A stretch of DNA of 64,000 nt from Bacteroidales bacterium UBA4772 (lineage in GTDB: Bacteria; Bacteroidota; Bacteroidia; Bacteroidales; VadinHA17), in contig DHHM01000017.1 in NCBI GenBank assembly GCA_002403305.1, positions 29,298 through 93,297 of the forward strand, given 5' to 3'. Made by a program: the position numbers and the translations under genes. The notes under the pieces were generated by a model. That model worked only from the letters and a program-made list of their open reading frames with translations, was not told the origin of the DNA and did no database searches. Each line of letters opens with the position of its first letter. The stretch's first letter is position 1. Below are positions 11,463 to 56,825 of this stretch, in pieces.

Positions 11463-11468
11463 AAAGAT

Positions 11469-13997: not shown

Positions 13998-13998
13998 T

Positions 13999-15684: not shown

Positions 15685-15745
15685 TACTCCCCTGAATTGA
15701 GACCACTGGTTAAGGTTAAATTTGATAACTTTAAACCAGTGCATT

Positions 15746-16033: not shown

Positions 16034-16047
16034 CTGAACGTCTTGGT

Positions 16048-33015: not shown

Positions 33016-33202
33016 AATTGATAAATTATTCATCCCGGGCAGATGGCGCCCGCACTATGCCAGGACTATCTGCCTATATGTGACAAAGATATAACAAATG
33101 GTGCAGGCACGGGTAAAGTATAAATCCCAACGCTGCAAAAATCATTTTATATGATTTGTATTTATCGTACATTTACGAGACAACTGTTTATTGTTCACCA
33201 TT

Positions 33203-34237
33203 ATGAAAAAGATGAAGGCTCTCGTTAAGGCTCAGGCTACCAAAGGATTATGGATGCAGGAAGTGCCTGTGCCGGAGCCCGGATACAATGATGTAATCAT
33301 AAAAGTCAAAAAGTCGGCCATATGCGGTACGGACCTGCATATCTATGAGTGGAATGAGTGGGCTCAGAAGACCATCGGGGTCCCCATGACCATAGGCCAT
33401 GAGTATATGGGTTATATCGACAAAGCCGGCCCCGGCGTGACGAATGTAAAGGTGGGCGACAGGGTCACCGGTGAAGGTCATCTCTTCTGCGGCACCTGCC
33501 GTAACTGCCGCCGGGGCAGAGAGCATGTATGCGAAAACACGGTTGGGATAGGAGTACATATCGACGGATCGTTTGCAGAGTATGTAAAAGTGCCGGCACG
33601 TAACGTGGTTCTGCTTGATCACCGCATCCCCGATGACTGGGCAGCCATTATGGACCCGTTTGGCAATGCCACCCATACTGCGCTGGCATTCCCCCTTCTG
33701 GGTGAGGATGTGCTGATCACCGGATCAGGACTGATAGGCAGCATGGCTGTTGCCATCGCCAGGTTCGCCGGCGCCCGTAATGTGGTAGCCACTGACCTGA
33801 GCGATTACCGCCTTGAACTGGCAAAAAAAATGGGCGCAACAAGGGTCCTCAATCCCGGAAGGGGAGAAAAAATACACGATGTCCTTGAACCCCTCCACAT
33901 GAAGGGATTCGATGTCGGGCTTGAGATGTCAGGCTCACCTGCCGCCTTCCGCGAAATGATTGAAAACATGTATAATGGATCCAACATTGCCTTACTGGGA
34001 ATCCTCCCCTCTGACTTCGAGGTCCCATGGAGCGATATCATCTTCAAGGCGCTGACCCTTAAGGGAATATATGGACGTGAGCTCTGGGAGACCTGGTATA
34101 AGATGCAGATGATGATCATCGGCGGAATCAATCTTGACCCTATCATTACACACCGTTTCCATATTGACGATTTCCAGAAGGGATTTGACATCATGGAAGA
34201 GGGCAACTGCGGTAAGGTGATCTTAAACTGGGAGTGA
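33203..34237 (+). CDS. tdh: L-threonine 3-dehydrogenase
   Basis: Zn-ADH pattern [15 protein letters not shown] and [16 protein letters not shown]. Its length and end resemble Tdh. The track start at 33191 is a TTG, and the ATG is at 33203. Confidence 0.9.
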
Positions 34238-34317
34238 GCAAAATTCTCTCTCCACAATTGCTGTTTTATAAAATAGTCCTATCTTGATGTCATTGTGTAT
34301 AAATATACCTGACATCT

Positions 34318-36024
34318 ATGTTGTCTGAACATCCGTCGTATGAAGAACTGACCAGGGACTTCAGCTGGTCCATTGCCGAAAAAGAGCTTGAATACACTCC
34401 CGGAGACATTATAAACATAGGTTGGCATTGCTCCGACAGGATATGCCATAAGGGCAAGGCAGACAAGATTGCCCTTTACTATGAGGGGTTCGGTGGCACC
34501 CGGAAGCAGTATACCTTCAATGATATCAGGCTGGCGGGAAATACTATCGGTGCTTTCCTCCTCAGCCAGGGAATCGCTGAAAGTGACCGGGTCTGTCTTT
34601 TTATGGACAGGATTCCCGAATTGTACCTCTCATTCCTGGGGATACTGAAGATCGGCGCCATCGTTCAGCCTCTTTTTTCCGCTTTCGGGGATGAATCTCT
34701 CTTTGTGCGCCTCGACAATGCAGAGACAAGGGCTGTCATAACGCAGAAGAAGCACCTGTCCAAGGTGAGGAAGATCCGCTCATCACTGCCCAAACTGGAA
34801 TTTGTTATCATAGTTGACAACGTAAAGCCCTCCGAGCTCGAACCCGGAGAGATCCTCTTCAGCCTTGAAAACGCTGAGCCTGTCGAGAAATTTGAGATAG
34901 CACCAACCCGGGCAGAAACCCATTCGCTGCTTCATTACACCTCCGGCACAACCGGTCAGCCCAAGGGGGTAAAGCACGTCCATTATTCCATCATGTCACA
35001 GTACCTCACCACAAAATGGGTTCTTGACCTGCGTGATGATGACATCTACTGGTGCACTGCTGACCCGGGTTGGGTGACCGGCACCTCGTACGGAATAATC
35101 GGACCGTGGAGCCTGGGTGTGACGCAGTGTGTCCTGGATACCGGATTTTCCGCCCAGGCATGGTACCGGTTTATTGAGAATTATAAAATAACGGTATGGT
35201 ACTCGGCTCCCACCGCCATCAGGTCACTGATGAAAGCCGGAGACGAGCTGGTGAAGGAGTTTGATCTCTCCTCCCTGCGTCACCTGGCAAGCGTCGGCGA
35301 ACCCCTCAATTCAGAAGCCGTTATATGGTCAGGAAGGGTGTTCGGAAAACAATTTCACGATACATTCTGGCAGACGGAGACAGGGTCTATAATGATCACC
35401 AACTTCCCCGGGATGAAGATTAAACCCGGCTCCATGGGAAAGACCTTCCCGGGAATAACGGGAGCAGTACTTGATCCGGTCACTTTCACACCTATCGGGG
35501 AGCCCGGCAAAGCCGGTCTTATAGCCTTCCGGCCCGGATGGCCCGCCATGATGAGAACATACTGGAGGAATGAGGAGAAATACAGGGAAAAATTCGTCAA
35601 CGGATGGTATCTCTCCGGCGACAGGTCGAGCATCGACAATGAAGGCTACTACTGGTTCATGGGACGTGATGACGACGTAATTAATACCGGCGGGCACCTG
35701 GTGAGCCCGTTCGAGGTCGAATCAGCGCTGCTCGAACATCCTGCCGTCGGTGAATCAGGGGTGACCTCCAAACCTGACGAGATAAACATGGAGGTGGTTA
35801 AAGCATTCATCACCCTCAAACCCGGTTTTACTGCCGGCCCTGACCTTGAACTTGAGATAATGAACTTCATCCGCAAAAAGCTCTCCCCACTGGCAATGCC
35901 ACAGGCTATTGAGTTCATGGATACCCTGCCCAAGACACGCAGCGGAAAGATCATGAGAAGAGTGCTTCATGCCAGGGAATGGGGTGAGGAGATAGGCGAC
36001 ATTTCAACTCTCGAAAATGACTGA
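34318..36024 (+). CDS. Acs-type adenylate-forming acyl ligase (AMP-binding)
   Basis: HYTSGTTGQPKGV, WCTADPGWVTGTSY, YWFMGRDDDVINTGGH and a C-terminal PKTRSGKIMRR. Collinear with short-chain AcsA-type enzymes. Confidence 0.85.
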   Translation: MLSEHPSYEELTRDFSWSIAEKELEYTPGDIINIGWHCSDRICHKGKADKIALYYEGFGGTRKQYTFNDIRLAGNTIGAFLLSQGIAESDRVCLFMDRIPELYLSFLGILKIGAIVQPLFSAFGDESLFVRLDNAETRAVITQKKHLSKVRKIRSSLPKLEFVIIVDNVKPSELEPGEILFSLENAEPVEKFEIAPTRAETHSLLHYTSGTTGQPKGVKHVHYSIMSQYLTTKWVLDLRDDDIYWCTADPGWVTGTSYGIIGPWSLGVTQCVLDTGFSAQAWYRFIENYKITVWYSAPTAIRSLMKAGDELVKEFDLSSLRHLASVGEPLNSEAVIWSGRVFGKQFHDTFWQTETGSIMITNFPGMKIKPGSMGKTFPGITGAVLDPVTFTPIGEPGKAGLIAFRPGWPAMMRTYWRNEEKYREKFVNGWYLSGDRSSIDNEGYYWFMGRDDDVINTGGHLVSPFEVESALLEHPAVGESGVTSKPDEINMEVVKAFITLKPGFTAGPDLELEIMNFIRKKLSPLAMPQAIEFMDTLPKTRSGKIMRRVLHAREWGEEIGDISTLEND

Positions 36025-36034
36025 ATATCACGAG

Positions 36035-36060
36035 CTTGCAGATATAACCCTCAAACGAAA
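36035..36060 (+). repeat. direct repeat R1 CTTGCAGATATAACCCTCAAACGAAA
   Basis: About 22 of 27 positions match R2 at 36116-36142. Confidence 0.6.
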
Positions 36061-36115
36061 TCGGCTTCCCGGAGCTGTGAAAATTAATCGTCATGATAAG
36101 TGAGATTTATGGCAA

Positions 36116-36142
36116 CTTGCAATTATAACCCTTAAAACGAAT
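36116..36142 (+). repeat. direct repeat R2 CTTGCAATTATAACCCTTAAAACGAAT
   Basis: Second copy, ending 5 nt before the carrier-protein ATG. Confidence 0.6.
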
Positions 36143-36147
36143 ATGTT

Positions 36148-36411
36148 ATGGAAGAGAATAATCTTAATGAGATGAAGGAGCTGATCCGGAACTATGTCAT
36201 CAAAGAGTACATCGATGATGATGACACTACGATAACAGATGATACACCTCTTATTTCCAGCGGTTACGTTGATTCGTTCTCGATGGTGTCACTGCTCGTC
36301 TTCCTCGAGAACAAATTCAAGATCAAGATCCCTCCAAGCAAGGCTACCCCTGAGGCATTTGACAGCGTAAACAATATTGTGGCACTGGTAAACCAGTATT
36401 TGAATAAATAA
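36148..36411 (+). CDS. stand-alone acyl/aminoacyl carrier protein
   Basis: 87 aa and acidic. The phosphopantetheine-site pattern SGYVDSFSMVSLLVFLENKF is DltC-like. Confidence 0.75.
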   Translation: MEENNLNEMKELIRNYVIKEYIDDDDTTITDDTPLISSGYVDSFSMVSLLVFLENKFKIKIPPSKATPEAFDSVNNIVALVNQYLNK

Positions 36412-36423
36412 ATCACAGACATC

Positions 36424-37671
36424 ATGAGTTACTCTGAAAAAACAAAGGACCTTTATCTGTCACAGCTGGCAGATATCAAAAACGCCGGGATATTCAAGGA
36501 GGAGCGCTTCATCCACAGTTCCCAGGCCGCCGATATTGAGGTTGAGTTTCCTTCAGGCTCAGACCTTAAGAAGGTCATCAACATGTGCTCAAACAATTAT
36601 CTGGGCCTCTCAAGCCACCCTGAGGTTATTAAGGCTGCTCATGACGGTCTTGAGTCAAGAGGTTACGGCATGTCATCCGTACGTTTTATCTGCGGTACTC
36701 AGGATATACACCGTGAGCTTGAAAAAAGGGTGACTGAATTCCTGGGCACAGAAGACACAATACTGTTCCCATCCTGCATGGATGCCAACGCGGGTGTTTT
36801 TGAGGCTATACTCACCAGTGAGGACATCATGATCTCCGACAGGCTGGTGCATGCCTCAATCATTGACGGCATGAGGCTATGCAGCGCCCAGCACGACACC
36901 TTCAAGCACTCCAGCATGGAGCACCTCGAAGAGAAACTACTGCTCCACTCAAACAAAAGGCTAAAACTGGTGATCACTGACGGGGTCTTCTCAATGGACG
37001 GGGACACGGCAAAGCTTGATGAGATGGTCCGGCTATGCGAAAAATACGATGCCCTGCTGCTGGTGGATGACTCCCACGCCACCGGATTCATAGGTAAAAC
37101 AGGCCGCGGGACACATGAGCTCTGCAATGTCATGGGCAAAATTGACATCATCACCACCACCTTCGGCAAGGCCCTGGGCGGAGCATCAGGAGGTTGTGTC
37201 TCGGGAAGAAGGGAGATAGTGGAGATGTGCAGGCAGAAGGCACGCCCCTACCTCTTCTCAAATACCATCGCTCCCGTAATAGTGTCAGGTGTCCTGAAGG
37301 TGTTCGATATCCTTTCGGCCAGCACTGAAAGACGCGACAAGCTGGAGAAGAATGCGGCATTCTGGAGGAAAGGACTGACAGAGGCAGGCTTTATTCTCAA
37401 GGAGGGTAATACCCCTATCGTTCCTGTTATGCTCTTCAATGCTAAGCTGTCACAGGATTTCTCAAAGGAACTCTTTAACGAGGGTATCTATGCCATAGGT
37501 TTCTTCTTCCCGGTGGTTCCAAACGGCCAGGCCAGGATCAGAACCCAGATATCCGCCGGCCATGAGAGACACCACCTCGGGGCAGCCCTTGAAAAATTCA
37601 TTAAAGTGGGTAAAAAACTGGGCGTACCGGGCCTTACCAAAGAACAGATAATCGAAAAGTTCGGACTGTAA
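36424..37671 (+). CDS. alpha-oxoamine synthase, Kbl paralogue (PLP-dependent C-acyltransferase)
   Basis: Collinear with the adjacent kbl and with E. coli Kbl: NNYLGLS, GMSSVRFICGT, VHASIIDG, TDGVFSMDGD, DDSHATG, and TTFGKALGG carrying the PLP lysine. It has a ~15-aa C-terminal extension. Confidence 0.85.
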   Translation: MSYSEKTKDLYLSQLADIKNAGIFKEERFIHSSQAADIEVEFPSGSDLKKVINMCSNNYLGLSSHPEVIKAAHDGLESRGYGMSSVRFICGTQDIHRELEKRVTEFLGTEDTILFPSCMDANAGVFEAILTSEDIMISDRLVHASIIDGMRLCSAQHDTFKHSSMEHLEEKLLLHSNKRLKLVITDGVFSMDGDTAKLDEMVRLCEKYDALLLVDDSHATGFIGKTGRGTHELCNVMGKIDIITTTFGKALGGASGGCVSGRREIVEMCRQKARPYLFSNTIAPVIVSGVLKVFDILSASTERRDKLEKNAAFWRKGLTEAGFILKEGNTPIVPVMLFNAKLSQDFSKELFNEGIYAIGFFFPVVPNGQARIRTQISAGHERHHLGAALEKFIKVGKKLGVPGLTKEQIIEKFGL

Positions 37672-37811
37672 GAGCCCGGAAATATTGTGGCGGATACCCT
37701 GACGCACGATAATAAATGCGTGCCATTTTAATCTTCTGGAGATGATTATCGTCATTGAATAATCACTGTAAAACGCGATCTTTGCATCCAATTAAGTGAT
37801 TCTTCTCTCAG

Positions 37812-39005
37812 ATGTACAATCAATACCGGGATTATCTCAGGACGCAGATCCACGAGATAAAGGAAGCAGGGCTTTACAAGAAAGAACGTGTCATTGTCTC
37901 ACCGCAGGGTGCGGAGATTACTCTTGACACCGGTCAGCGGGTGCTTAACTTCTGTGCCAACAACTACCTGGGACTGTCGGCCAATGCAAAGCTGGTTGAA
38001 GCGGCAAGAAATGCACTTGATACTCACGGCTACGGTATGTCATCGGTACGCTTCATATGCGGTACAGGAGACCTGCATAAGGAACTGGAGCACAAACTTG
38101 CTGAGTTCTTCGGCACTGAGGATACCATACTCTATGCTGCCTGCTTCGATGCCAACGGCGGTGTGTTCGAGCCTCTTCTGACAAGCGAAGACGCCATAAT
38201 CTCCGATGCTCTTAACCACGCTTCCATAATTGATGGGGTGCGCCTCTGCAAGGCACAGCGTTACCGCTATGAGAATGCCGACATGGAAGACCTGGAGAGC
38301 CAGCTGCAGCAGGCACAGGAACAGCGCTTCAGGCTGGTGGTCACTGACGGTGTCTTCTCCATGGACGGCAACGTGGCTCCGCTTGACAGGATCTATGAGC
38401 TGGCAAACAAATACGACGCCATGGTCATGGTCGACGAGTCTCATTCAGCAGGCGTGGTGGGTGATACAGGCCGCGGTGTCACCGAGCTTTACAACCTGAA
38501 GGGTAAGATAGAGATCATCACCGGCACGCTGGGCAAAGCATTCGGAGGAGCCATCGGTGGATTCACCACCGGCAAGAAGGAGATCATCGAGATGCTGCGC
38601 CAGCGCTCGCGGCCATATCTCTTCAGCAACTCCATCCCGCCGCTGGTCGCTGCTGCAGGCATAAAGATGGTTGAGATGATGACAGAGACCAATGAGCTGC
38701 AGGACAAGCTCCATTTCAACACTAAATATTTCATGGACAGGATGCTGGATGCCGGCTTTGACATCAAGCCCACCCAGTCAGCAATCTGTGCCGTGATGCT
38801 CTATGACGCCAAACTGTCACAGGAAATGGCGGCAAAGCTTCTCGATGAAGGCATCTACGTCACCGGTTTCTACTACCCGGTAGTCCCCAAGGGCCAGGCC
38901 CGCATCAGGGTACAGCTCTCTGCAGCACACGGGCAGGAACATCTTGACAAGGCAATCGCTGCCTTCACCAGGGTAGGAAAAGAGCTGGGCATCTTAATGT
39001 ATTGA
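37812..39005 (+). CDS. kbl: 2-amino-3-ketobutyrate CoA ligase (glycine C-acetyltransferase)
   Basis: Near full-length collinearity with E. coli Kbl: FCANNYLGLS, ISDALNHASIIDGVRLCKA, TGTLGKAFGG and YPVVPKGQARIRVQLSAAH. Confidence 0.9.
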   Translation: MYNQYRDYLRTQIHEIKEAGLYKKERVIVSPQGAEITLDTGQRVLNFCANNYLGLSANAKLVEAARNALDTHGYGMSSVRFICGTGDLHKELEHKLAEFFGTEDTILYAACFDANGGVFEPLLTSEDAIISDALNHASIIDGVRLCKAQRYRYENADMEDLESQLQQAQEQRFRLVVTDGVFSMDGNVAPLDRIYELANKYDAMVMVDESHSAGVVGDTGRGVTELYNLKGKIEIITGTLGKAFGGAIGGFTTGKKEIIEMLRQRSRPYLFSNSIPPLVAAAGIKMVEMMTETNELQDKLHFNTKYFMDRMLDAGFDIKPTQSAICAVMLYDAKLSQEMAAKLLDEGIYVTGFYYPVVPKGQARIRVQLSAAHGQEHLDKAIAAFTRVGKELGILMY

Positions 39006-39124: not shown

Positions 39125-39184
39125 ATGAACCACATTTCACTGTTTATTATTGCCCTCACACTTATTATCGCTTCGAGCGCATAA
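39125..39184 (+). CDS. ilv/leu operon leader peptide MNHISLFIIALTLIIASSA
   Basis: 19 codons, five Ile and three Leu. It lies between the promoter box and the terminator that precedes ilvD. Confidence 0.6.
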   Translation: MNHISLFIIALTLIIASSA

Positions 39185-39221: not shown

Positions 39222-39254
39222 AAAGCTTCCCGGAAAACCGGGAAGCTTTTTTTT
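39222..39254 (+). terminator. attenuator terminator upstream of ilvD
   Basis: AAAGCTTCCCGG-AAAA-CCGGGAAGCTTT followed by T8. It ends 14 nt before the ilvD ATG. Confidence 0.8.
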
Positions 39255-39267
39255 AAACAGTTCATCA

Positions 39268-41094
39268 ATGAAAAGAGAACTCAGGAGCCTGAGAACAATG
39301 ACCGGCAGGACCATGGCCGGGGCAAGGAGCCTCTGGAGGGCAAACGGCATGAAGGAGGAACAGTTCGGGAAACCGGTGATAGCAATTGTCAATTCATTCT
39401 CACAGTTCGTTCCGGGTCATATGCACCTGCACCAGGTCGGGCAGGCTGTAAAGAAGGAGATTGAGAGTCTTGGCATGTTCGCCGCAGAGTTCAACACCAT
39501 AGCCATCGATGACGGCATAGCCATGGGCCACGGGGGTATGCTCTATTCACTCCCCTCGCGTGAACTTATTGCCGACAGTGTCGAGTATGTCTGCAATGCC
39601 CACTGTGCTGACGCCATGATATGCATAAGCAACTGCGACAAAATCACCCCCGGGATGCTCATGGCTGCCATGCGCCTCAACATACCTGCGGTATTCGTCT
39701 CCGGAGGTCCTATGGAGGCCGGCAGGGCAGGAGGAAAAGCTGTTGATCTGATCACTGCCATGGTGGCTGCAGCTGACGACAGCGTCACTGACGAAAACCT
39801 GCTTGAGATAGAACGATCGGCCTGCCCCACCTGCGGATCCTGCTCGGGCATGTTCACCGCCAACTCAATGAACTGCCTGTCAGAGGCTCTCGGACTGGCA
39901 CTGCCAGGCAACGGCACCGTGGTGGCCACCCACACCAACAGGAGTCAGCTCTTTACCCGGGCCGCCAGGCTGATAACAGAACTGGCACAGAAATATTACG
40001 AACAAGGGGATGAATCCGTACTGCCACGTTCCATTGCCACACGAGCTGCCTTCATCAATGCCATGTCGCTTGACATGGCGATGGGGGGATCCACCAACAC
40101 TGTCCTCCACCTACTTGCCATTGCCCGTGCTGCCGGAGTTGATTTTACCATGAAAGACATTGATGAACTCTCACGCACAGTTCCCAACATATGCAGGGTC
40201 TCCCCCTCCTCATCTTTTCACATTGAAGATATCAACCGTGCCGGAGGGGTCTTTGCCATACTCGGAGAACTGGAACGAGCCGGACTGCTCGACACCTCAG
40301 TGAGAAGAGTCGACTACCCTACACTGGGGGAAGCGATTGATGAATGGGATATTATCAGCCCTACCGCCTTGCCGCAGGCTCATCATCTCTTCCTGAGCGC
40401 CCCCGGTGGTGTGAGGAGCACACTGGGCGGCACTGTAACAGAACTGTATACCTCACCAGATAAGGACAGGATCAGCGGGGCCATAAGAGATGTCAGCCAT
40501 CCATATAATGCTGACGGAGGACTGGCAGTGCTTTACGGCAACCTGGCACCGGACGGATGCATAGTGAAGAGTGCCGGCATCGACAGTTCGATGCTCAGCT
40601 TCAGCGGCACGGCAGTGACCTTTGACTCCCAGGAAGAAGCTGTCACAGGAATACTGAACGGGAAGGTGAAAGAGGGCGACGCAGTTGTGATACGCTACGA
40701 AGGTCCGCGTGGCGGTCCGGGCATGCAGGAGATGCTATACCCCACCTCTTACCTCAAATCCAAAGGGCTGGATAAAAAATGTGCACTCATAACAGACGGT
40801 CGCTTCTCCGGAGGCACGGCAGGACTCTCAGTGGGACATGTCTCACCCGAGGCCGCAGCCGGTGGAACCATCGCCCTGGTCAATGACGGCGATATTATTG
40901 AGCTCGACATACCGGGAAGACTCATCAGACTGGCAGTCACTGAAACAAATCTGGAAGAGAGGCGTCGCAAAGAAATGCAAAAAGGAGCCCGGGCGTTCAC
41001 CCCGGCAGGCAGAAAACGGGTCATACCGTCGTCGCTGCAGGTATACGCTGCCCACGTGAGCTCGGCAGACCAGGGAGCAGTGAGACTATTATGA
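39268..41094 (+). CDS. ilvD: dihydroxy-acid dehydratase
   Basis: [16 protein letters not shown]...[19 protein letters not shown] ... [11 protein letters not shown] is collinear with E. coli IlvD. Confidence 0.95.
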
Positions 41095-41110
41095 CAATAA
41101 AACAGGCATA

Positions 41111-42853
41111 ATGAAAGAGAAAACTAAAACTGCCGGAGGACAGGATATGAATAACTATGAAGCAGAGGTCACGGGAGCCGAAGCACTCCTTAAATGTCTC
41201 ATTGAAGAGGGCGTTGATACAATATTCGGTTATCCCGGGGGAGCAATTATGCCTGTCTACGACAAACTGCTTGATTACAGCGACAGGCTCCGGCACATAC
41301 TGACACGTCATGAACAGGGGGCTGCTCACGCCGCACAGGCATACGCCATGGTAACCGGAAGACCGGGAGTATGCTTCGCCACATCAGGACCGGGGGCAAC
41401 AAACCTCGTGACAGGGATAGCCAATGCGTTCCTCGACTCCGTGCCGGTGGTATTCATCACGGCACAGGTAACATCAGGACTTATCGGTACCGACGCTTTT
41501 CAGGAGACTGATATACTCGGCATCTCGACGCCGGTGACCAAGTGGAATGCCCAGGTCAAAAAGGCGGCCGATATTCCTGACACCATTGCGCGCGCATTTT
41601 ACATCGCCAGGTCGGGCCGTCCGGGCCCCGTACTGGTAGATATCTCGAAGGATGCACAATTTGAAAATCTCAGCTATAGCTACCGGAAATGCACATACAT
41701 AAGAAGTTATAACCCGGTCATCCCTCTTCATATCAGGGATATTGAATCAGCGGCCGTAATGATCAATCATGCGGATAAACCCCTTATCCTGGCAGGCCAC
41801 GGCGTTATCCTCTCCGGTGCCGCAGATGAACTGAAAGCCTTAGCTGAAAAGGGAGGTATCCCCGTTGCAGCAACGCTTCTCGGACTGCCGGCTTTCCCGC
41901 AGAGGCACAGGCTTTTCGCAGGAATGCTGGGCATGCATGGCAACTATGCACCCAATGTCCTAACCAACCAGGCAGACCTCATCATCGCAATAGGCATGCG
42001 CTTCGATGACAGGGTTACCGGTAACCTTAAAAAGTATGCACCTGAAGCCAGGATAATTCATATTGAGATTGATAAGGCGGAAATCAATAAAAATGTAAGG
42101 GTCGACCTTGAGATCAACAATGATGCACGGGAAGTCCTTACGGCTCTCCTTCCACTTCTGCGTGAGAAGAGCCGTGAGAAATGGATAAGGGAGTTCAGAA
42201 TCCTCGACCGGGTGGAGTATGAAAAGGTTATCAGACCGGAGACAGAGCCCGGCGAGGGTGAAATCCGAATGGGGGAAGTTGTGAATACAGTCTCGGACAT
42301 TACGGAAGGTGATGCGGTCATCGTCACTGACGTGGGGCAGCATCAGATGGCAGTGGCACGCTATTACCGTTTCAGTGAGAAGAGCATTCTGGTGACATCA
42401 GGCGGGATGGGCACCATGGGATTCGGCCTCCCGGCATCGCTGGGAGCAGCATCAGGAAATCCCGGCAAACCTGTTATTGCCTTTATCGGGGACGGCGGCT
42501 TCCAGATGACGCTTCAGGAGCTGGGAACCATAATGCAGTATCAGATCCCCGTCAAAATAATTCTCCTCAACAACAGCTTCCTGGGCATGGTACGCCAATG
42601 GCAGGAGATGTTCTTCAACGGAAGGTACGCCTCTACTGAAATGGTAAACCCCGACTTTGTGGCCCTGGCCGGAGCCTACGGCATCCAGGCCCGCAGCGTG
42701 ACACGCCGTGAGGAGCTAAGCCAGGCAGTGGGGACAATGCTTGCTGCCGAAGGCCCATTCCTGGTTGAGGTAGCCATAGGCAGGGAGGCTAATATCCTTC
42801 CTATGGTCGAACCCGGGGCATCAGTCTCAGAAGTCACACTAACATACAGATAA
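41111..42853 (+). CDS. ilvB: acetolactate synthase large subunit
   Basis: ThDP enzyme with FGYPGGAIMPVYD and GDGGFQM...LNN motifs. Confidence 0.92.
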   Translation: MKEKTKTAGGQDMNNYEAEVTGAEALLKCLIEEGVDTIFGYPGGAIMPVYDKLLDYSDRLRHILTRHEQGAAHAAQAYAMVTGRPGVCFATSGPGATNLVTGIANAFLDSVPVVFITAQVTSGLIGTDAFQETDILGISTPVTKWNAQVKKAADIPDTIARAFYIARSGRPGPVLVDISKDAQFENLSYSYRKCTYIRSYNPVIPLHIRDIESAAVMINHADKPLILAGHGVILSGAADELKALAEKGGIPVAATLLGLPAFPQRHRLFAGMLGMHGNYAPNVLTNQADLIIAIGMRFDDRVTGNLKKYAPEARIIHIEIDKAEINKNVRVDLEINNDAREVLTALLPLLREKSREKWIREFRILDRVEYEKVIRPETEPGEGEIRMGEVVNTVSDITEGDAVIVTDVGQHQMAVARYYRFSEKSILVTSGGMGTMGFGLPASLGAASGNPGKPVIAFIGDGGFQMTLQELGTIMQYQIPVKIILLNNSFLGMVRQWQEMFFNGRYASTEMVNPDFVALAGAYGIQARSVTRREELSQAVGTMLAAEGPFLVEVAIGREANILPMVEPGASVSEVTLTYR

Positions 42854-42858
42854 TCATT

Positions 42859-43419
42859 ATGAAGCAGGAATATACAATATCGCTCTTTACTGAGGATCAT
42901 ATAGGAATCCTCAGCAGGATAACCCTTATCCTTACCCGGAGACAGATAAACATAGAAAGCATTACTGCCTCGGAATCTGCAGTCAAAGGTGTTCAGATGC
43001 TTACCATGGTGGTCACCACTACGCCTGACATGGTGAATAAGGTTGCCACACAGATTGAAAAACTGGTCGATGTCATCAAGGTATTCGTGCACACCTCCCC
43101 TGAGATAATATGCCAGGAGATAGCACTGTATAAAGTCACCTCCAGGGGGCTGATGTCAGGCAGTATGATTGGCGATCTCGTACGGAAACATCATGCCCGC
43201 ATACTTGAAGTGACACCTGAATATATCGTCGTGGAGAAGAGTGGCAACAGGGCTGAGATAACTGATCTCCTGGCTGTTCTTGAACCATGCGGCGTGCTTC
43301 AGTTCGTCAGGTCGGGCAGGATAGCTGTAACAAGACAGGTCAAGGAGCTGAATGCATACCTGAAAGAGATGGAGGAAGCCGAACGGGGAGGACCTGAAAA
43401 ACTTGAAGTATATAATTAA
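42859..43419 (+). CDS. ilvN: acetolactate synthase small (regulatory) subunit
   Basis: ACT domain LFTEDHIGILSRITLILTRRQINIESI. Position directly after ilvB. Confidence 0.88.
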   Translation: MKQEYTISLFTEDHIGILSRITLILTRRQINIESITASESAVKGVQMLTMVVTTTPDMVNKVATQIEKLVDVIKVFVHTSPEIICQEIALYKVTSRGLMSGSMIGDLVRKHHARILEVTPEYIVVEKSGNRAEITDLLAVLEPCGVLQFVRSGRIAVTRQVKELNAYLKEMEEAERGGPEKLEVYN

Positions 43420-43450
43420 CTGAATTACACTAATCTAACAATAGACAATT

Positions 43451-44497
43451 ATGGCACAGATCGATTTTGGAGGAGTAACAGAGAGTGTTGTGACAAGGGA
43501 AGAGTTTCCGCTCTCAAAAGCACGTGAAGTATTGAAGAATGAAGTTGTGGCCGTCATCGGGTACGGGGTCCAGGGGCCGGCACAGGCTATGAACATGAGA
43601 GACAACGGCATCAACGTGATTATAGGACAGGCACCCGAATTCAAAAATGACTGGGAGAGGGCTGTGGCTGACGGGTTCGTTCCCGGGAAAACTCTCTTCG
43701 GTATTGAGGAGGCTGCAGAGAGAGGCACCATCATTCAGTACCTTGTCTCCGATGCAGCTCAGAGGACCCTCTGGCCCCGGATAAAACCCTGTCTTACGAC
43801 AGGCAAGGCGCTATACTTCTCTCACGGCTTCTCCGTCACATATAAGGAACATACCGGTGTGGTCCCTCCTCCGGATATAGACGTCATCCTCTGTGCTCCG
43901 AAAGGTTCAGGAACCAGTGTAAGACGCAACTTCCTCGCCGGCGCCGGCATCAACTCAAGCTACTCCGTCTTTCATGATCATACAGGCAGGGCTGAAGAGC
44001 GTACCATTGCCCTCGGCATCGCCATTGGCTCAGGTTACCTCTTCCCCACCACATTCGAGAAGGAGGTGTTCAGTGATCTTACAGGTGAGCGTGGTGTGCT
44101 CATGGGCGCCCTCGAGGGTATCATGGAGGCACAGTACCAGGTGCTGCGCGATAACGGCCATTCACCGTCGGAAGCCTTTAACGAGACAGTGGAGGAGCTG
44201 ACGCAGAGCCTGATACGGCTTGTTGACGAGAAGGGGATGGACTGGATGTATGCCAACTGCAGCGCCACGGCGCAGCGCGGCGCTCTCGACTGGAAACCGA
44301 AGTTCAGGGAGGCCACACTGCCGGTCTTCAGGGATCTGTATGACAAAGTCAGCTCAGGAGAAGAGTGTGTCAGGGTACTCACTTCAACCGGGTCAGCCGA
44401 CTACCGCGAAAAGCTCGATGCGGAGCTAAAGGAGATGGGCAGATCAGAGCTCTGGAGAACAGGTGCGGCAGTGAGAAAACTGAGACCTCAGAAATAA
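43451..44497 (+). CDS. ilvC: ketol-acid reductoisomerase
   Basis: [21 protein letters not shown] Rossmann motif and the class I KARI length. Confidence 0.93.
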
Positions 44498-44516
44498 CAT
44501 TCACCAAACAGATATT

Positions 44517-46034
44517 ATGGAAAACAACAGGGTAATAATATTCGATACGACCCTCCGTGACGGTGAGCAGGTACCAGGCTGCCAGCTCAACACGGTTGAG
44601 AAGATTGAAGTTGCGAGGGCACTGGAGGCACTGGGAGTGGATGTGATCGAGGCAGGGTTCCCCGTATCGAGTCCGGGCGACTTCAGGTCGGTGGTAGAAA
44701 TATCAAAGGCAGTCCGTAACCCGGTCATCTGTGCCCTGACAAGAGCCGTGAAAAAGGACATAGAGGTGGCAGCCGAGTCCCTCAGGTATGCTGAGAGAAA
44801 GCGGATTCACACAGGAATAGGTACATCCCCTTACCATATTCAGCACAAGATCAAAACGACGCCGGAAGAGATAATCAAAAGAGCCGTCGATGCCGTTAAA
44901 TACGCCAGGAAATTTGTTGACGACGTGGAATTCTACGCCGAAGATGCCGGCAGAAGCGACAACGCCTATCTCGCCAGGGTGATCGAAGCTGTCATAAAAG
45001 CAGGGGCCACAGTGGTAAACATACCTGATACAACAGGTTATTGCCTCCCGGAGGAATACGGCGTCAAGATCAGATACCTCGTCGAGAATGTCCCGAACAT
45101 TGACCAGGCAGTCATCTCAACACACTGTCACAATGACCTCGGGATGGCCACCGCAAACACAATGATGGGCATCATCAACGGAGCCCGCCAGGCGGAGGTG
45201 ACAATCAACGGCATTGGCGAGAGGGCAGGTAACACATCGCTTGAAGAGGTGGCAATGATCATAAAGAGCCATCATGACCTGAAGCTCTCCACCGGCATCA
45301 ACCCGAAGCTGATATTCAGCACCAGCAGGTTGGTCTCCACACTGATGAGCATGCCCGTACAGGCCAACAAGGCTATTGTCGGGAGAAATGCCTTTGCCCA
45401 CTCGTCAGGAATACACCAGGACGGTGTTCTCAAGAACCGTGAAAACTACGAGATAATTGATCCTAAGGAGGTGGGCATAAGGGAATCTTCAATCATCCTT
45501 ACGGCCCGCAGCGGCAGGGCGGCTCTCAATCACAGGCTCGACCTGCTGGGCATTAAACTGGGGAAGGAGGAGCTTGATGAGATCTATCACCGTTTCCTCA
45601 TCCTTGCCGACAAGAAAAAGGAGATCAATGACGAGGATATTAAGATCCTGTCAGGAGAGGTCTTCAGGGGTGAGAAGAGGCTTAAGCTGGAGACATTGCA
45701 GGTCCTGTGCGGCAACTCGGTCACCCCGGTGGCAACAGTAGGCGTGAGGATCAACGGCGAGGTGCATACTTCCACCGCCCCGGGGAACGGTCCTATCGAC
45801 GCCGCCCTGACAGCCGTCAAACACCTGATCCATGACAATGTACACCTCGAGGAGTTCCTGATACAGGCAATAACGCGGGGAAGCGACGATATCGGCAAGG
45901 TGCATATCCAGGTTGAGCATGAAGGAAAGATCTTTTATGGCTTCTCAGCAAACACGGATATAATTACTGCCTCCGTTGAGGCATTCATTGATGCTGTTTC
46001 AAGGATTGACAATGGAGCCACGGACACTGTTTGA
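44517..46034 (+). CDS. leuA: 2-isopropylmalate synthase
   Basis: [20 protein letters not shown], and a C-terminal LeuA dimerisation/regulatory domain. Confidence 0.93.
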
Positions 46035-47424
46035 CAAGATCTGGGATCCACATGTCGTGAAGTCTGTTGAGGACGGTCCGGATGTGCTATATATCGACCG
46101 CCACTATATCCATGAGGTCACCAGCCCCCAGGCGTTTCCGGGCCTTCGGCAACGGCGCATCGGGGTCTTCAGGCCTGAAAAGACCACAGCGGTGGCAGAC
46201 CACAACATACCCACCACAGATCAACATCTTCCGATAAGGGATGCCGTCTCACGGGCACAGGTGGAAGCCCTGGCAGACAACTGCAGGGTAGCCGGGATCG
46301 AGTACTTCGGCATAGGTCATCACAATAACGGTATTGTCCATGTCACAGGCCCTGAACTGGGGAAAACCCTGCCCGGGATGACTATAGTATGCGGCGACAG
46401 TCACACATCAACCCACGGAGCTTTTGGTACCATTGCTTTCGGCATAGGTACCAGCGAAGTGGAGATGGTGCTGGCGTCACAGTGCATCCTTCAGACCAGG
46501 CCGGCAAGGATGAGGATAACCGTCAACGGAGAACTCAGTAAAGGGGTGACGCCCAAAGATCTGATCCTATATATTATCTCTTCCATCTCCACCAGCGGTG
46601 CCGCCGGTTATTTCGTCGAATATGCAGGAGAGGCTATAAAAAGCCTGGGTATGGAGGCCAGAATGACCATTTGCAACATGAGCATTGAAATGGGAGCCCG
46701 CGGTGGCCTGATAGCACCTGATGAGATCACCATTGATTATCTCTCGCGAATCCCTTCATTCAACAGAAACCCTGAAGCCGAAAGCCTTACTGAGAATTGG
46801 CTCTCACTGCGGACTGACCCCGGGGCGGTATTTGACAGGGAACTGGAGTTTGATGCCTCATCCGTACCGCCAATGATAACCTGGGGGACAAACCCGGGAA
46901 TGGGTATGGCTGTCGATGGAAAAATACCTGAAGCAGACCAGCCCGGACCTGGCGGCAACGACTCCTTTCTGAAGGCACTTGAGTATATGGGCTTTAAACC
47001 GGGAATGAAGCTCCTGGGCCATCCTGTGGACTATGTCTTCCTGGGTAGTTGCACCAACGGCCGCATAGAAGATCTCAGGGCTTTTGCCTCTATGGTGGAG
47101 GGAAGGCAAAAAGCCCCGGGAGTAACGGTACTTATAGTGCCCGGATCACAGCAAGTTGCACGGCAGGCAGAAGAGGAAGGGCTTACAGAAATATTTAAAA
47201 GGGCAGGCTTTGCTATGAGACAGCCCGGATGCTCATCATGCCTTGCAATGAATGATGATAAGATACCTCCAGGGAAATATTCTGTCTCAACCTCGAACCG
47301 TAATTTCGAGGGGAGACAGGGTCCCGGGGCAAGGACAATCCTTGCGGGGCCGCTTGCCGCTGCTGCCGCTGCAGTTACTGGAAGGATAACAGACCCGAGG
47401 GAACTGATACGGGTTTGTGATTGA
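46012..47424 (+). CDS. leuC: 3-isopropylmalate dehydratase large subunit
   Basis: [16 protein letters not shown]..., CGDSHT and [11 protein letters not shown]. It overlaps the leuA end by 23 nt. Confidence 0.93.
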
Positions 47425-47439
47425 TAAAACCGACAGGCA

Positions 47440-48042
47440 ATGAACAGAAGAAAATTTACCATACTGGAGTCAACATGTGTCCCCCTGCCCCTCGGAAATG
47501 TTGATACCGATCAGATCATACCTGCGAGGTTCCTGAGCGCTACTTCAAGAGAAGGGTTTGGTAAAAACCTCTTCCGCGACTGGCGGTATGACAAGAATGG
47601 CAATGAAATAAAGGATTTCGTTCTCAACCGGCCGGAATACGGAGGATCCATACTTGTCGCCGGTAGTAACTTCGGATGTGGCTCCAGCCGCGAACATGCG
47701 GTATGGGCTATCGCCGACTACGGCTTCAGGGCGGTTGTCTCTGACTCCTTCGCCGATATCTTCCGGAACAACGCACTTAATAACGGATTGCTGCCGGTGG
47801 AGATACCCTCCGGCATGCTCAGTGACCTGACTGAACAGATAGGAGCGAATCCTGGTATAATAGTGAAAATTGACCTTGAACGGCAGATTATCTCGGCTGA
47901 TGAGACCGGTATGTCTGTCCCCTTTGCAATAAATTCCTTCAGGAAGCAATGCCTGCTCAATGGTCTTGACAACGTCGGTTTCCTGGTAAATATGAGAAGC
48001 AGGATTATTGAATATGAAAAGAGCAGAGGAGGCCCGGGATGA
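47440..48042 (+). CDS. leuD: 3-isopropylmalate dehydratase small subunit
   Basis: NVDTDQIIPARFL and GSNFGCGSSREHA. Confidence 0.93.
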   Translation: MNRRKFTILESTCVPLPLGNVDTDQIIPARFLSATSREGFGKNLFRDWRYDKNGNEIKDFVLNRPEYGGSILVAGSNFGCGSSREHAVWAIADYGFRAVVSDSFADIFRNNALNNGLLPVEIPSGMLSDLTEQIGANPGIIVKIDLERQIISADETGMSVPFAINSFRKQCLLNGLDNVGFLVNMRSRIIEYEKSRGGPG

Positions 48043-48155
48043 GGATTGAGATAATGGATACAACTCTTCGCGACGGCGAACAGACACAGGGCCTCTCCTG
48101 TTCGCCGCTGAAGACTTCAGTATTTAACGGAAAATCAGTTTCAGATGGAATTTAA
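48039..48155 (+). pseudogene. remnant of a second LeuA/CimA-family (citramalate/IPM synthase) gene
   Basis: An ATGA overlap with the leuD stop is followed by [18 protein letters not shown], the family N-terminal signature. Unrelated sequence follows, with a stop inside the leuB start. Confidence 0.6.
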
Positions 48156-49212
48156 GATAGCAGTTCTGCCTGGTGACGGGATAGGTCCTGAGATCATTGA
48201 ACAGGCCGTTAAGACAATGAATGCGGTTGGCAAGAAATTCAACCATTCATTTAATTACGAATATGCTCCCGTTGGTGCAGCAGCCATTGACAAGACGGGT
48301 TCACCCCTTCCTGATGAGACCCTGATAAAATGCAAAGCCTCTGATGCGGTTTTGTTCGGTGCCATCGGTGACCCGAAATATGATAATGATCCTTCAGCCA
48401 GGGTAAGACCGGAACAGGGACTCCTTGCCATGCGCAGGGAGCTGGGGCTGTATGCAAATGTGAGACCGGTAACAACATTCCCTCCATTACTTGACAGATC
48501 ACCTCTGAAAAGGGAGATTCTTGACGGAGTTGATATTTTAACGGTGAGAGAACTGACAGGCGGTATCTACTTCGGAAAACCTCAGGGCAGGTCTGAAGAC
48601 GGGAAAACAGCGTATGACTCATGTGTCTACAGTGAATATGAGATTGAACGTGTTGTCAGGCTTGCCTGTGAATATGCCCTTAAGCGAAAGGGGAAGGTCA
48701 CCGTGGTCGACAAGGCGAATGTACTGGCAACATCAAGATTGTGGCGTGAAACATCAAAAGAGATCGTTCATGATTACCCTGGAATAGAAATGGACTTTCT
48801 GTTCGTCGACAATGCTGCCATGCAGTTAATCCAGAATCCGCTGCGGTTTGATGTTATTGTTACCGAGAATATGTTTGGTGATATCCTGTCCGATGAGGCA
48901 AGCGTGATCACAGGCTCCCTGGGCCTTCTGCCGTCAGCCTCAATCGGATCCTCAACATCTGTCTTTGAACCTGTACACGGATCCTATCCCCAGGCAGCAG
49001 GTAAGAATATCGCCAATCCCCTCGGCACAATCCTGTCGGCAGCAATGCTCCTCGAAACAGGACTAAACCTCACCAGGGAATCAGATGCCCTGAAAAAAGC
49101 AGTTGAAAAATCTCTTGAAGCCGGGATGGTAACAGAAGATCTGGACAGAAGTAACCCCTGCTCAACCAATATGGTTGGCGACTGGATATCAGAATATATT
49201 TTGCACAATTGA
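48145..49212 (+). CDS. leuB: 3-isopropylmalate dehydrogenase
   Basis: IAVLPGDGIGPEI and NMFGDILSDEASVITGSLGLLPSAS. Confidence 0.95.
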   Translation: MEFKIAVLPGDGIGPEIIEQAVKTMNAVGKKFNHSFNYEYAPVGAAAIDKTGSPLPDETLIKCKASDAVLFGAIGDPKYDNDPSARVRPEQGLLAMRRELGLYANVRPVTTFPPLLDRSPLKREILDGVDILTVRELTGGIYFGKPQGRSEDGKTAYDSCVYSEYEIERVVRLACEYALKRKGKVTVVDKANVLATSRLWRETSKEIVHDYPGIEMDFLFVDNAAMQLIQNPLRFDVIVTENMFGDILSDEASVITGSLGLLPSASIGSSTSVFEPVHGSYPQAAGKNIANPLGTILSAAMLLETGLNLTRESDALKKAVEKSLEAGMVTEDLDRSNPCSTNMVGDWISEYILHN

Positions 49213-49233
49213 ACCCACGGAGCACATAAGATA

Positions 49234-50076
49234 ATGGATCGTCAGATGTATGTAGCCATTCAGGGCGAAAAGGGCAGCTTCCACGAGGTGGCGGCAAATG
49301 ACTTTTTTGGAGATGAAAGAATTATTCTGGTGCCATGCCCAACATTCGATGAAACTGTTAATGCGGTGCTCCGGGGCAGAGCTGAATATGCTGTTATGGC
49401 AATAGAGAATGCCCGCGCAGGAAGCATACTTTACAATTACAACCTTATCAGGGAGTCGCGTCTTAAGATACTTGGCGAGATAAGACTCAGGATCAGGCAA
49501 AATCTCATGGCACTTCCCGGAACAACAATTGACTCGTTAAGTGAGATCAGATCTCATCCAATCGCTCTCGCCCAGTGTATGGAATTTCTTAATACTCTGA
49601 AAGGAGTGACATTGATCGAGACCGATGACACTGCCGGTTCTGCCAGGATTATAAGTGAACAGGAACTTGCCGGGACAGCCACTATCGCATCAGCCAGTGC
49701 AGCTGATATATACGGTCTTGAAATTCTTGCCGGGGGCATAGAAACATATAAAAAGAACTATACGAAGTTTCACATTATAGGTAATGAATCTGTAATGCCA
49801 ACTGTGGGAGATAAAGCATCGGTTTGTTTTGCCACGGGCCACAAACCCGGATCACTTGCCAGGGTTCTGATGATACTTGCCGACATGGATATCAATCTTT
49901 CAAAGATACAGTCTGTCCCCCGGCTGAACGGGACCTGGGAGTATATGTTCTATGTCGATCTTGAACTGAGCACTGTTTCAAAAATGGAACATATAGTCAA
50001 AGCACTTGAAGAACATACAATGAACCTGGAGATACTTGGGATCTACAATAAGGATAACAATCTGTACGAAAGTTAA
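49234..50076 (+). CDS. pheA: prephenate dehydratase (PDT + ACT)
   Basis: AIQGEKGSFHE, the ESRL-type region, and ACT domain SVCFATGHKPGSLARVL. Confidence 0.85.
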   Translation: MDRQMYVAIQGEKGSFHEVAANDFFGDERIILVPCPTFDETVNAVLRGRAEYAVMAIENARAGSILYNYNLIRESRLKILGEIRLRIRQNLMALPGTTIDSLSEIRSHPIALAQCMEFLNTLKGVTLIETDDTAGSARIISEQELAGTATIASASAADIYGLEILAGGIETYKKNYTKFHIIGNESVMPTVGDKASVCFATGHKPGSLARVLMILADMDINLSKIQSVPRLNGTWEYMFYVDLELSTVSKMEHIVKALEEHTMNLEILGIYNKDNNLYES

Positions 50077-50138
50077 AAAGTCAGAGAAACAGATAAATTA
50101 ATATTACTGTCATGCCTTTGCCGTGATCAAATAATTAC

Positions 50139-50146
50139 TATTTTTG
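50139..50146 (+). promoter_or_regulatory. -7 box TATTTTTG, with TTTG at 50117-50120
   Basis: Matches TAnnTTTG 18 nt before the leader ATG. Confidence 0.45.
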
Positions 50147-50163
50147 TGCCGAAGAAATAAAAA

Positions 50164-50220
50164 ATGTTTTTGAACAAACTACATCATCATCATTCTCATA
50201 CTTGCTCTCAGGCGAGATGA
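50164..50220 (+). CDS. his operon leader peptide MFLNKLHHHHSHTCSQAR
   Basis: 18 codons, with five His among six consecutive codons. It lies between the promoter box and the terminator upstream of hisG. Confidence 0.75.
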   Translation: MFLNKLHHHHSHTCSQAR

Positions 50221-50251
50221 AATTGGTGTGTGGTGAACACTGAATATCATA

Positions 50252-50284
50252 AACCCGTCTGAGCAGATCAGACGGGTTTTTTTT
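50252..50284 (+). terminator. attenuator terminator upstream of hisG
   Basis: AACCCGTCTGA-GCAGA-TCAGACGGGTT followed by T8. Confidence 0.8.
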
Positions 50285-50320
50285 GTCGCACGGTCTGCTC
50301 AGTCAAACAGAAAAATTAAG

Positions 50321-53491: not shown

Positions 53492-53590
53492 AGATCAGGC
53501 GATTACAATCACAAACAGAATCAAAAGATTTTGAATATAAACCCTGAATGATTGATCCAAATCACAAACAAGTATGAAAATATATCGCAT

Positions 53591-56716: not shown

Positions 56717-56775
56717 AACCTCCATGTATTTGCATACATAAACATAATAATATAATAATCAACTACATGGAGGTT
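56717..56775. repeat. 12-bp inverted repeat AACCTCCATGTA ... TACATGGAGGTT with a 35-nt AT-rich loop
   Basis: Read directly. It starts on the base after the hisF stop and abuts the 17-nt palindromic element. Confidence 0.8.
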
Positions 56776-56792
56776 CTCCCGATAAATCGGGA
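56776..56792 (-). repeat. 17-nt palindromic element, copy 3 (reverse complement)
   Basis: CTCCCGATAAATCGGGA is the reverse complement of TCCCGATTTATCGGGAG at 17400 and 17467. Confidence 0.9.
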
Positions 56793-56825
56793 CAGGCTAT
56801 CATACCATTAAAAATAAATTATCAT

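Follow-up and report, generated by a model that had tools for sequence, protein, structure and literature searches.

A conserved ligase-carrier protein pair and a divergent Kbl paralogue in a threonine-cleavage operon of uncultured Bacteroidales, with a possible role in carrier-dependent acetyl transfer

The 64,000-nucleotide stretch of DNA analysed here (contig DHHM01000017.1 of Bacteroidales bacterium UBA4772, assembly GCA_002403305.1), hereafter called the window, carries three genes between tdh, which encodes L-threonine 3-dehydrogenase, and kbl1, which encodes an orthodox glycine C-acetyltransferase. These three genes lie on the same strand as their neighbours and encode an adenylate-forming ligase of the acetyl-CoA synthetase (Acs) type, a stand-alone carrier protein and a second protein of the Kbl family, designated Kbl2. 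Together, the ligase and carrier genes constitute a fixed, Dlt-like acyl-donor module that recurs in two genomic contexts, while Kbl2, to judge by its conservation and its residues, is a real enzyme distinct from its neighbour. The locus would then be a threonine-cleavage operon to which a carrier-protein branch has been added. In the reading that I tentatively favour, at somewhat less than even confidence, Kbl2 runs the Kbl reaction with the thiol of the carrier, so that threonine would yield glycine and acetyl-carrier, and the ligase would charge the same carrier from acetate.

Relatives of the locus were collected by a scan seeded with the carrier, one genome being taken per species. The scan returned 175 relatives, and the 80 best loci were examined; almost without exception they belong to uncultured anaerobic Bacteroidales, sampled in sediments, peat, springs and digesters. 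The original prediction had proposed a check of the gene neighbourhood across Bacteroidota, and this check showed that the arrangement is no product of chance: the complete tdh-ligase-carrier-kbl2-kbl1 block was found at 41 loci (species-representative genomes), about 12 further partial loci end at contig ends, and tdh is found in 43 related loci. The ligase gene lies directly upstream of the carrier gene in 77 of 78 loci, in two genomic contexts, a count that describes loci retrieved via the carrier and leaves carrier-less ligases outside the sample. The coupling of kbl2 to the carrier gene is also tight. In the window, kbl2 starts 12 nt past the carrier stop codon, and the spacer measures 8–17 nt in 43 of 53 loci. 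Look-ups seeded with Kbl2 gave the same neighbours at all ten places, with a gene for a PP-binding protein preceding kbl2 wherever the contig reaches far enough upstream, and no case of kbl2 without the carrier was met in either the carrier-seeded loci or these look-ups. The converse does not hold. One locus (L025, 8001-9546) reads tdh-ligase-carrier-kbl1, with a clean 91-nt junction and no kbl2, so that loss of kbl2 can leave the ligase-carrier pair in place; retention of the pair after kbl2 loss fits an independent role for it. The proposal that ligase, carrier and Kbl2 are conserved as a unit stands therefore insofar as the three are kept together, but the unit is not specific to Kbl2, the pair occurring alone at about 25 other loci that contain neither tdh nor kbl. 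The flanks of the related loci are those seen in the window, with gltX-tatD-thiF upstream and either ilvDBNC or ribonucleotide reductase genes downstream. This common synteny indicates one ancestral arrangement inherited vertically, and the number of loci is therefore not a number of independent events.

The second context of the pair is provided by membrane-bound O-acyltransferases (MBOATs). In 15 loci devoid of kbl, the pair lies beside a gene for an MBOAT of about 490 aa (PF03062), which in related loci scores 172 bits on the DltB model against a cutoff of 375. All 14 complete MBOATs carry the C-terminal motif F(I/L)YF(Q/R)F, an instance of FxYxxF, with which bacterial MBOAT-SGNH systems shuttle acyl groups (PMC12148441). 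Next to the MBOAT is encoded a protein of about 303–321 aa, with an N-terminal membrane segment and with GSS/GDS and DxxH-like motifs, that has no Pfam or NCBIfam match. An attempt to assign this partner to the SGNH/DltD group by sequence was abandoned, no family being matched and the matches in the PDB being His-tag artefacts. The two contexts are not sealed off from each other: one locus (L047) carries ligase-carrier-kbl2-MBOAT on one strand, and another (L057) has the MBOAT pair placed between tdh and the ligase gene. Three metagenome-assembled genomes hold both locus types, and in the two pairs that were compared the ligases are 81–82% and the carriers 78–83% identical. A neighbour-joining tree of the ligases is compatible with separate kbl-linked and MBOAT-linked clades, without resolving them. 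The MBOAT-linked pair would be the cytoplasmic donor half of a system for cell-surface acylation, most likely O-acetylation.

The full set of four genes, ligase-carrier-MBOAT (with FxYxxF)-SGNH-like protein of about 310 aa, without tdh or kbl, is present at loci L041, L046, L048, L052-L054, L058 and L060, and the same set recurs at L062, L064, L067, L072, L073, L078 and L080. It is a candidate carrier-dependent envelope acetylation system.

What the module carries can be read to some extent from the ligase (34318–36024, plus strand; 568 aa, AMP-binding and AMP-binding_C domains), a short-type Acs-like enzyme. Its closest solved relative is a 572-aa Acs, 9g79 (E 1.8e-167 over residues 7–566; about 55% identity on a rough reading of the alignment), the short-type AMP-forming AcsA of Bacillus subtilis. 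The ligase narrowly passes the acetate–CoA ligase equivalog NF003313 (749 bits for a cutoff of 729), long-chain ligase models give scores far under their cutoffs, and one source names the ligase cluster "acetyl-CoA synthetase". When the ligase family (59 sequences) was mapped onto E. coli Acs numbering, the equivalents of the acetate-pocket residues W309, V310, T311, V386 and W414 and of the catalytic K609 proved invariant in 59/59 sequences; key residues in the window are V253 (35074–35076), V326 (35293–35295), W351 (35368–35370) and the catalytic K544 (35947–35949). Since the acetate pocket is complete, the tethered group should be acetyl, or at most propionyl, and since the pocket residues are invariant, long-chain lipid or sphingoid products are very unlikely; this tells strongly against the lipid head group or sphingoid-like base put forward in the original prediction. 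By contrast with the pocket, R526, which is Arg in both E. coli Acs and 9g79, is replaced by Leu in 59/59 ligases (L461 in the window, 35698–35700). As to the acceptor of the acyl group, the constant adjacency of the carrier gene argues that it is the carrier.

The carrier itself (36148–36411, plus strand; 87 aa, PF00550) is of the DltC/PltL type. Its phosphopantetheine serine is Ser43 (36274–36276), in the motif GYVDSFSMVSLL, and its nearest solved relatives are 6cxt, PltL, DltC and PigG, which are aminoacyl or peptidyl carriers and not fatty-acid acyl carrier proteins (ACPs). In its serine motif and helix II pattern the carrier is similar to DltC, though the scores stay under the DltC cutoffs (39.7 vs 68 and 31 vs 52 bits). 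Among 72 carriers from both locus types the DSFS serine is invariant and the core of helix II almost so, and the core does not differ between kbl-linked and MBOAT-linked loci. The top NCBIfam match is ACP_for_OlsHI, but membership of that family was rejected, the score being 57.6 bits for a cutoff of 130 and the family belonging to a planctomycete GH3-type ornithine-lipid pathway.

Kbl2 (36424–37671, plus strand; 415 aa) is a divergent alpha-oxoamine synthase (AOS) of the Kbl family, and Kbl1 (37812–39005, plus strand; 397 aa) is the orthodox glycine C-acetyltransferase, or 2-amino-3-ketobutyrate CoA ligase. On the Kbl equivalog TIGR01822 (cutoff 493) they score 566 and 674 bits, respectively, and Kbl2 also scores 566 bits on NF005394 (cutoff 460). 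The identity of the two paralogues, which the original prediction had put at roughly one half, is 51%, compared with 54% between Kbl2 and E. coli Kbl and 58% between Kbl1 and E. coli Kbl. Kbl1 groups in the trees with E. coli Kbl and canonical representatives. In neighbour-joining bootstraps, Kbl2 is monophyletic in 200/200 replicates, sister to Kbl1 in 0/200 and outside the core clade of E. coli Kbl and Kbl1 in 132/200, while staying within the wider Kbl-like radiation; among 1.84 billion representatives, no family was found that is nearer to Kbl2 than ordinary Kbl (51–55% identity). A recent duplication of Kbl1 was rejected as the origin of Kbl2 on the strength of the bootstraps and of the identities to Kbl1 and E. 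coli Kbl. The profile comparison suggested in the original prediction places Kbl2 in the Kbl family, whose equivalogs it passes, and far below the cutoffs of the serine palmitoyltransferase (SPT) models. Of the five proteins, Kbl2 varies least: its mean pairwise identity is 89.1%, as compared with 86.2% for Kbl1, and it exceeds that of Kbl1 in 236 of 250 locus pairs. This marks Kbl2 as an enzyme under constraint rather than a copy in decay. Sources that give names to its orthologues use "glycine C-acetyltransferase".

The residues of Kbl2 fall into two groups. Everything needed for the cofactor and for glycine is kept: the pyridoxal phosphate (PLP) lysine Lys249 (37168–37170, in TTFGKALGG), the stacking histidine His143 (36850–36852), preceded by Val142 in place of Asn, the DDSH motif, the ARIR arginine and an SVRFICGT loop identical to that of Kbl1. 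At 73 positions, however, Kbl2 is fixed unlike canonical Kbl, and the clearest cluster of changes comprises K147S, R150H, Y151D, R152T and Y153F, together with N135V, F112M and G116A. Across 47 Kbl2 sequences, each of the S..H-D-T-F residues and the Val occurs at a frequency of at least 95%, and most of them without exception. The motif K..(R/K)(Y/F)R(Y/F) is near-universal among library proteins that share 50% identity or more with E. coli Kbl (partial deviants: P0129, P0157 and the truncated P0144), and Kbl2 is an outlier; Kbl1, with its PLP lysine Lys242 at 38535–38537, keeps the K147..RYRY strand. The altered strand of Kbl2 spans S154–F160 (36883–36903). R150 sits 14 residues past the catalytic histidine, which is the offset of Lys156 in aminolevulinate synthase (ALAS), and an AlphaFold2 model of Kbl2 (pLDDT 93.4) has a matching His-helix-strand layout, with the R150 position on the matching strand. 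In the R. capsulatus enzyme, Lys156 lines the adenosyl pocket for succinyl-CoA, and its mutation raises the Km 23-fold without abolishing activity (PMC4615937). By homology to ALAS, Kbl2 would therefore appear to have lost the residues that hold the adenosine of CoA. It has, in addition, an FPxG insertion and a C-terminal extension from P402 (37627), modelled as an extra helix at residues 406–413. The top fold matches of the model are the CoA-dependent Kbl structures 7BXP, 1FC4 and 3TQX (TM 0.91–0.96).

Much of what the original prediction had described is confirmed by these data. All five open reading frames (ORFs) lie where it had placed them, on the plus strand with ligase, carrier and Kbl2 between tdh and kbl1; the motifs it quoted are present (the carrier site, TTFGKALGG, RLVHAS in Kbl2 vs ALNHAS in Kbl1, CMDANAG vs CFDANGG, and the C-terminal extension); and the differences it had noted close to the substrate concern channel positions that are fixed in orthodox Kbl and changed in Kbl2. 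None of the three outcomes that it had singled out as able to overturn it was seen: Kbl2 is not the sister of Kbl1 and its residues differ, the ligase-carrier pair is conserved, and the carrier serine does not vary. The interpretation is partly supported as a whole: it was right about a conserved functional unit with a distinct paralogue, and wrong about a lipid product and a self-contained triad.

The reaction scheme that I favour can be laid out as follows. Tdh oxidizes threonine to 2-amino-3-ketobutyrate, which Kbl1 cleaves with CoA to glycine and acetyl-CoA. The ligase would adenylate acetate and hand the acetyl group on to the neighbouring DltC-like carrier, at its phosphopantetheine arm. 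Kbl2 would catalyze the interconversion of 2-amino-3-ketobutyrate plus HS-carrier and glycine plus acetyl-S-carrier; in the catabolic direction, the carrier would be charged from threonine without expenditure of ATP, in parallel to the ligase route. The acetyl-carrier could then serve as donor to an MBOAT-SGNH pair for envelope acetylation. The complete chain, in which Kbl moves the acetyl group of 2-amino-3-ketobutyrate onto a Dlt-like carrier that feeds MBOAT-SGNH acetylation of a cell-envelope polymer, is a possibility that I regard as doubtful.

The order of the genes might also reflect synteny without coupling, Kbl2 being an ordinary CoA-dependent isozyme, perhaps with another regulation or another short acyl-CoA, and the pair serving an MBOAT system encoded elsewhere. 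This would sit well with the passing of both Kbl equivalogs, with the CoA-dependent Kbl enzymes as best structural matches, with a carrier that is alike in the two contexts, with the survival of the pair without kbl2 at L025 and with an arrangement going back to one lineage. However, it leaves aside the basic strand, lost in Kbl2 and kept by nearly all other Kbl-clade proteins, and the stronger constraint on Kbl2 than on Kbl1: an isozyme that is redundant should not surpass every other gene of the block in conservation. Nor does it address why Kbl2 is never apart from the carrier in the loci examined and starts so close behind it. I judge this explanation unlikely. A different objection concerns the ligase, which could be an ordinary acetyl-CoA synthetase recapturing acetate for general metabolism while another enzyme loads the carrier. 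The equivalog score, the end-to-end alignment with 9g79, the preserved acetate pocket, K609 and R194/R584 equivalents and the name given by one source are what such an enzyme would show; yet the equivalog cutoff is passed only narrowly, R526 is Leu in every member, the carrier gene is adjacent in all but one locus in both contexts, with a spacer of about 45 nt, and no other adenylating enzyme recurs in the related loci as a possible loader of the carrier. I judge a plain acetyl-CoA synthetase very unlikely.

The remaining question is that of direction. The original prediction held that a tethered acyl group is condensed with glycine; in its present form, this proposal has the ligase make acetyl-carrier and Kbl2 condense it with glycine to 2-amino-3-ketobutyrate, leading to aminoacetone and alkylpyrazines or, by Tdh reduction, to threonine. 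In its favour, ligase, carrier and synthase are laid out as in the carrier-dependent AOS modules already known, kbl2 is closely coupled to the carrier gene, all condensation residues are present in Kbl2, and the Tdh and Kbl reactions are reversible in vitro. But cleavage explains the layout, with tdh upstream, at least as well, and the equilibrium of the Kbl reaction lies on the side of cleavage. Condensation would moreover be a redundant route that spends ATP, since Tdh already makes 2-amino-3-ketobutyrate without ATP and Kbl1 could condense acetyl-CoA; the acetate pocket excludes long-chain products; and the presence of the pair beside MBOATs elsewhere, as well as the MBOAT that follows kbl2 at L047, would go unexplained. 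I judge the biosynthetic direction unlikely as well. Cleavage by Kbl2 with the carrier thiol, along with charging of the carrier by the ligase, is preferred because it explains at once why ligase and carrier are so constantly paired, why MBOATs are associated with the pair, why kbl2 follows the carrier gene so closely, why the CoA-adenosine strand is gone and how kbl2 can be lost with the pair kept.

Several observations nevertheless weigh against this preference. Every functional step in it is deduced from genomic context and residues: that the carrier is loaded and with which acyl group, that Kbl2 depends on the carrier, in which direction the reaction runs, and what finally accepts the acyl group. 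The linkage of ligase and carrier to Kbl2 in kbl-type loci may be a single historical event passed down vertically. No MBOAT is present in the window or in most kbl-type loci, a statement that covers the loci examined and not whole genomes, and the SGNH label of the MBOAT partner is putative, being drawn from short motifs and gene position. The reason for having an acetyl-carrier donor appears doubtful, given that PatA-type MBOATs use acetyl-CoA directly. The ligase retains the equivalents of R194 and R584, which are putative CoA contacts, reportedly on the strength of mutagenesis work on S. enterica Acs; an enzyme that keeps them and passes the acetate–CoA ligase equivalog may still make acetyl-CoA. 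The adenosyl-pocket argument would hold by homology to ALAS, not from a Kbl-CoA structure, and the ALAS lysine mutant is still active. Finally, Kbl2 shows no gain in positive charge (net charge −5.6 vs −6.4 for Kbl1), and the idea of a positive docking patch for the carrier was dropped for want of a useful difference between these values.

If the proposal is true, Kbl2 would be the first carrier-dependent Kbl; to my knowledge Kbl has been treated to date as strictly CoA-dependent, and a search of the available literature returned no ACP-dependent, or carrier-dependent, Kbl. Such an enzyme would mean that this family can exchange its thiol partner even in housekeeping catabolism, beyond lipid and natural-product pathways. 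The acetyl-carrier would likewise be without precedent as a carrier-protein donor of acetyl to a bacterial MBOAT, making a Dlt/Pat hybrid in Gram-negative Bacteroidales; the same search found neither a system made of an Acs-type ligase, a carrier and an MBOAT nor an acetyl-carrier donor for an MBOAT. An Acs-type ligase and a DltC-like carrier next to MBOATs of the PatA kind point to a third donor arrangement, acetyl-carrier, in at least 175 species-level genomes of environmental Bacteroidales. The current names "glycine C-acetyltransferase" and "acetyl-CoA synthetase" would mask a carrier-linked function of this kind.

The residue N135V was also considered as a marker of carrier-fed AOS enzymes and rejected, long AOS proteins without Asn135 being PilZ or response-regulator fusions and not carrier fusions, and fusions occurring with Asn as well. 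These fusions are of some interest by themselves. A PilZ (c-di-GMP-binding) N-terminal domain is found on many AOS proteins of 520–920 aa (P0199, P0209, P0225, P0229, P0232, P0235, P0239, P0247 and P0269), P0209 has a GNAT domain in addition, and the AOS P0219 has a response-regulator receiver domain, which suggests second-messenger control of some AOS enzymes. Two other natural fusions join a Kbl-like AOS domain to a zinc alcohol-dehydrogenase (Tdh-like) domain (P0157) and an AOS domain to an AAA_26 (dethiobiotin-synthetase-like) domain (P0236).

The boundaries of the block were delineated as follows. On its upstream side, the tdh ORF (33191–34237, plus strand) opens with TTG at 33191, the probable start being the ATG at 33203 or 33212. 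Its product has ADH_N and ADH_zinc_N domains (Pfam) and reaches 531 bits on NF003808, where the cutoff is 380, and 468 bits on TIGR00692, where it is 458. The intergenic spacers of the five-gene block measure, in order, 80, 123, 12 and 140 nt. No terminator-like site was found in them, counts being at chance level, and no riboswitch or other RNA family rose above threshold in the cluster. Downstream of kbl1 comes a separate unit, in which ilvD is preceded by a Bacteroidota −7 motif, by a leader ORF rich in Ile and Leu and by a strong hairpin followed by a T-run, so that the cluster ends at kbl1. The ligase-carrier spacer (36025–36147, plus strand) holds a repeat of the carrier leader: two copies of an element of about 24 nt, TTGCA..ATAACCCT..AAA(A)CGAA, lie at about 36036 and 36117. 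In most related loci this spacer is only about 40–48 nt long with one copy-like leader, and the two-copy form is restricted to the window and its nearest relatives (L001-L003); it seems to have arisen when about 80 nt of the carrier leader were duplicated in this lineage.

Some neighbouring features of the window were recorded in passing. The segment 39006–39267 is a likely leader-peptide attenuator candidate for ilvDBNC: a TAnnTTTG −7 motif at 39099 is followed by a short ORF for MNHISLFIIALTLIIASSA (about 39125–39184) and by a strong hairpin and T-run (about 39222–39255) just ahead of the ilvD start at 39268, with a weak Rfam match to Phe_leader (31 bits, under threshold). From 39268 to 57125 extends a long run of genes on the same strand, starting with ilvD, ilvB, ilvN and ilvC by similarity of family labels and continuing with leu- and his-like biosynthesis genes, as judged from N-terminal sequences only. 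Far upstream, the region 10113–16857, of low GC content (0.36–0.42), encodes a TonB-dependent receptor, a DUF4249 protein and an IS3-type integrase (rve, 16048–16857); it is probably an acquired segment, with no bearing on the threonine operon.

Comparison with known systems places the locus between several of them. Relative to the E. coli Tdh-Kbl pathway, Tdh and Kbl1 are orthodox, and Kbl2 shares the fold, the PLP lysine, the stacking histidine, the cofactor Asp and His, the carboxylate arginine and the glycine-site loop. The E. coli tdh and kbl genes adjoin, whereas three genes separate tdh from kbl1 in the window, and Kbl2 differs from E. coli Kbl in the absence of the K147/R150/R152 strand and of Asn135, in the FPxG insertion and extra C-terminal helix, and in its predicted use of a carrier thiol. 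The ligase, for its part, is like the short-type Acs 9g79 in length class, acetate pocket and catalytic lysine, and unlike it in being paired with a carrier gene and in the replacement of R526 by Leu throughout the family. The original prediction had likened the locus to ACP-dependent SPT modules. Caulobacter Spt reportedly works with a dedicated ACP and an acyl-ACP synthetase. SulA, the cysteate acyl-ACP transferase of Alistipes (Rikenellaceae), is an AOS that prefers acyl-ACP over acyl-CoA (PMC9304779). The likeness holds for the layout, which combines an adenylate-forming ligase, a small carrier and an AOS enzyme, with the three genes adjacent in the window. It does not extend to the parts: the synthase is Kbl-type, scoring 310, 275 and 223 bits on SPT models with cutoffs of 640, 500 and 670; the ligase, a short-type Acs, has an acetate pocket, unlike the long-chain acyl-ACP synthetase of Spt modules; the carrier is of the DltC/PltL type and not a fatty-acid ACP; and instead of a lipid base, the predicted product is a C4 amino-keto acid or acetyl-carrier.

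The MBOATs of the related loci resemble those of PatA/PatB and AlgI/AlgJ in that a C-terminal FxYxxF is followed by a putative SGNH partner and that the predicted cargo is acetyl. The shuttle tyrosine receives its acyl group from acetyl-CoA in PatA and from D-alanyl-DltC in DltB (PMC12148441), and unlike PatA, the MBOATs described here have a dedicated ligase and carrier beside them, which would imply an acetyl-carrier donor. In the Dlt route, the acyl group travels from the carrier via the MBOAT to the tyrosine, then to the SGNH serine and to the polymer (PMC12148441). The window and its relatives share with DltABCD(X) a stand-alone ligase and a DltC-like carrier, to which the related loci add a DltB-like MBOAT and a membrane-anchored GSS/GDS partner, neither a DltB MBOAT nor a DltD partner being encoded in the window. 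They differ in that the ligase is Acs-type and not a DltA adenylation domain, that the predicted cargo is acetyl and not D-alanyl, that the MBOAT, like PatA, has an FxYxxF tail of its own and makes no use of DltX, that all components stay under the Dlt equivalog cutoffs, and that the hosts are Gram-negative Bacteroidales. The donor module is therefore like DltA/DltC in logic, not in ancestry.

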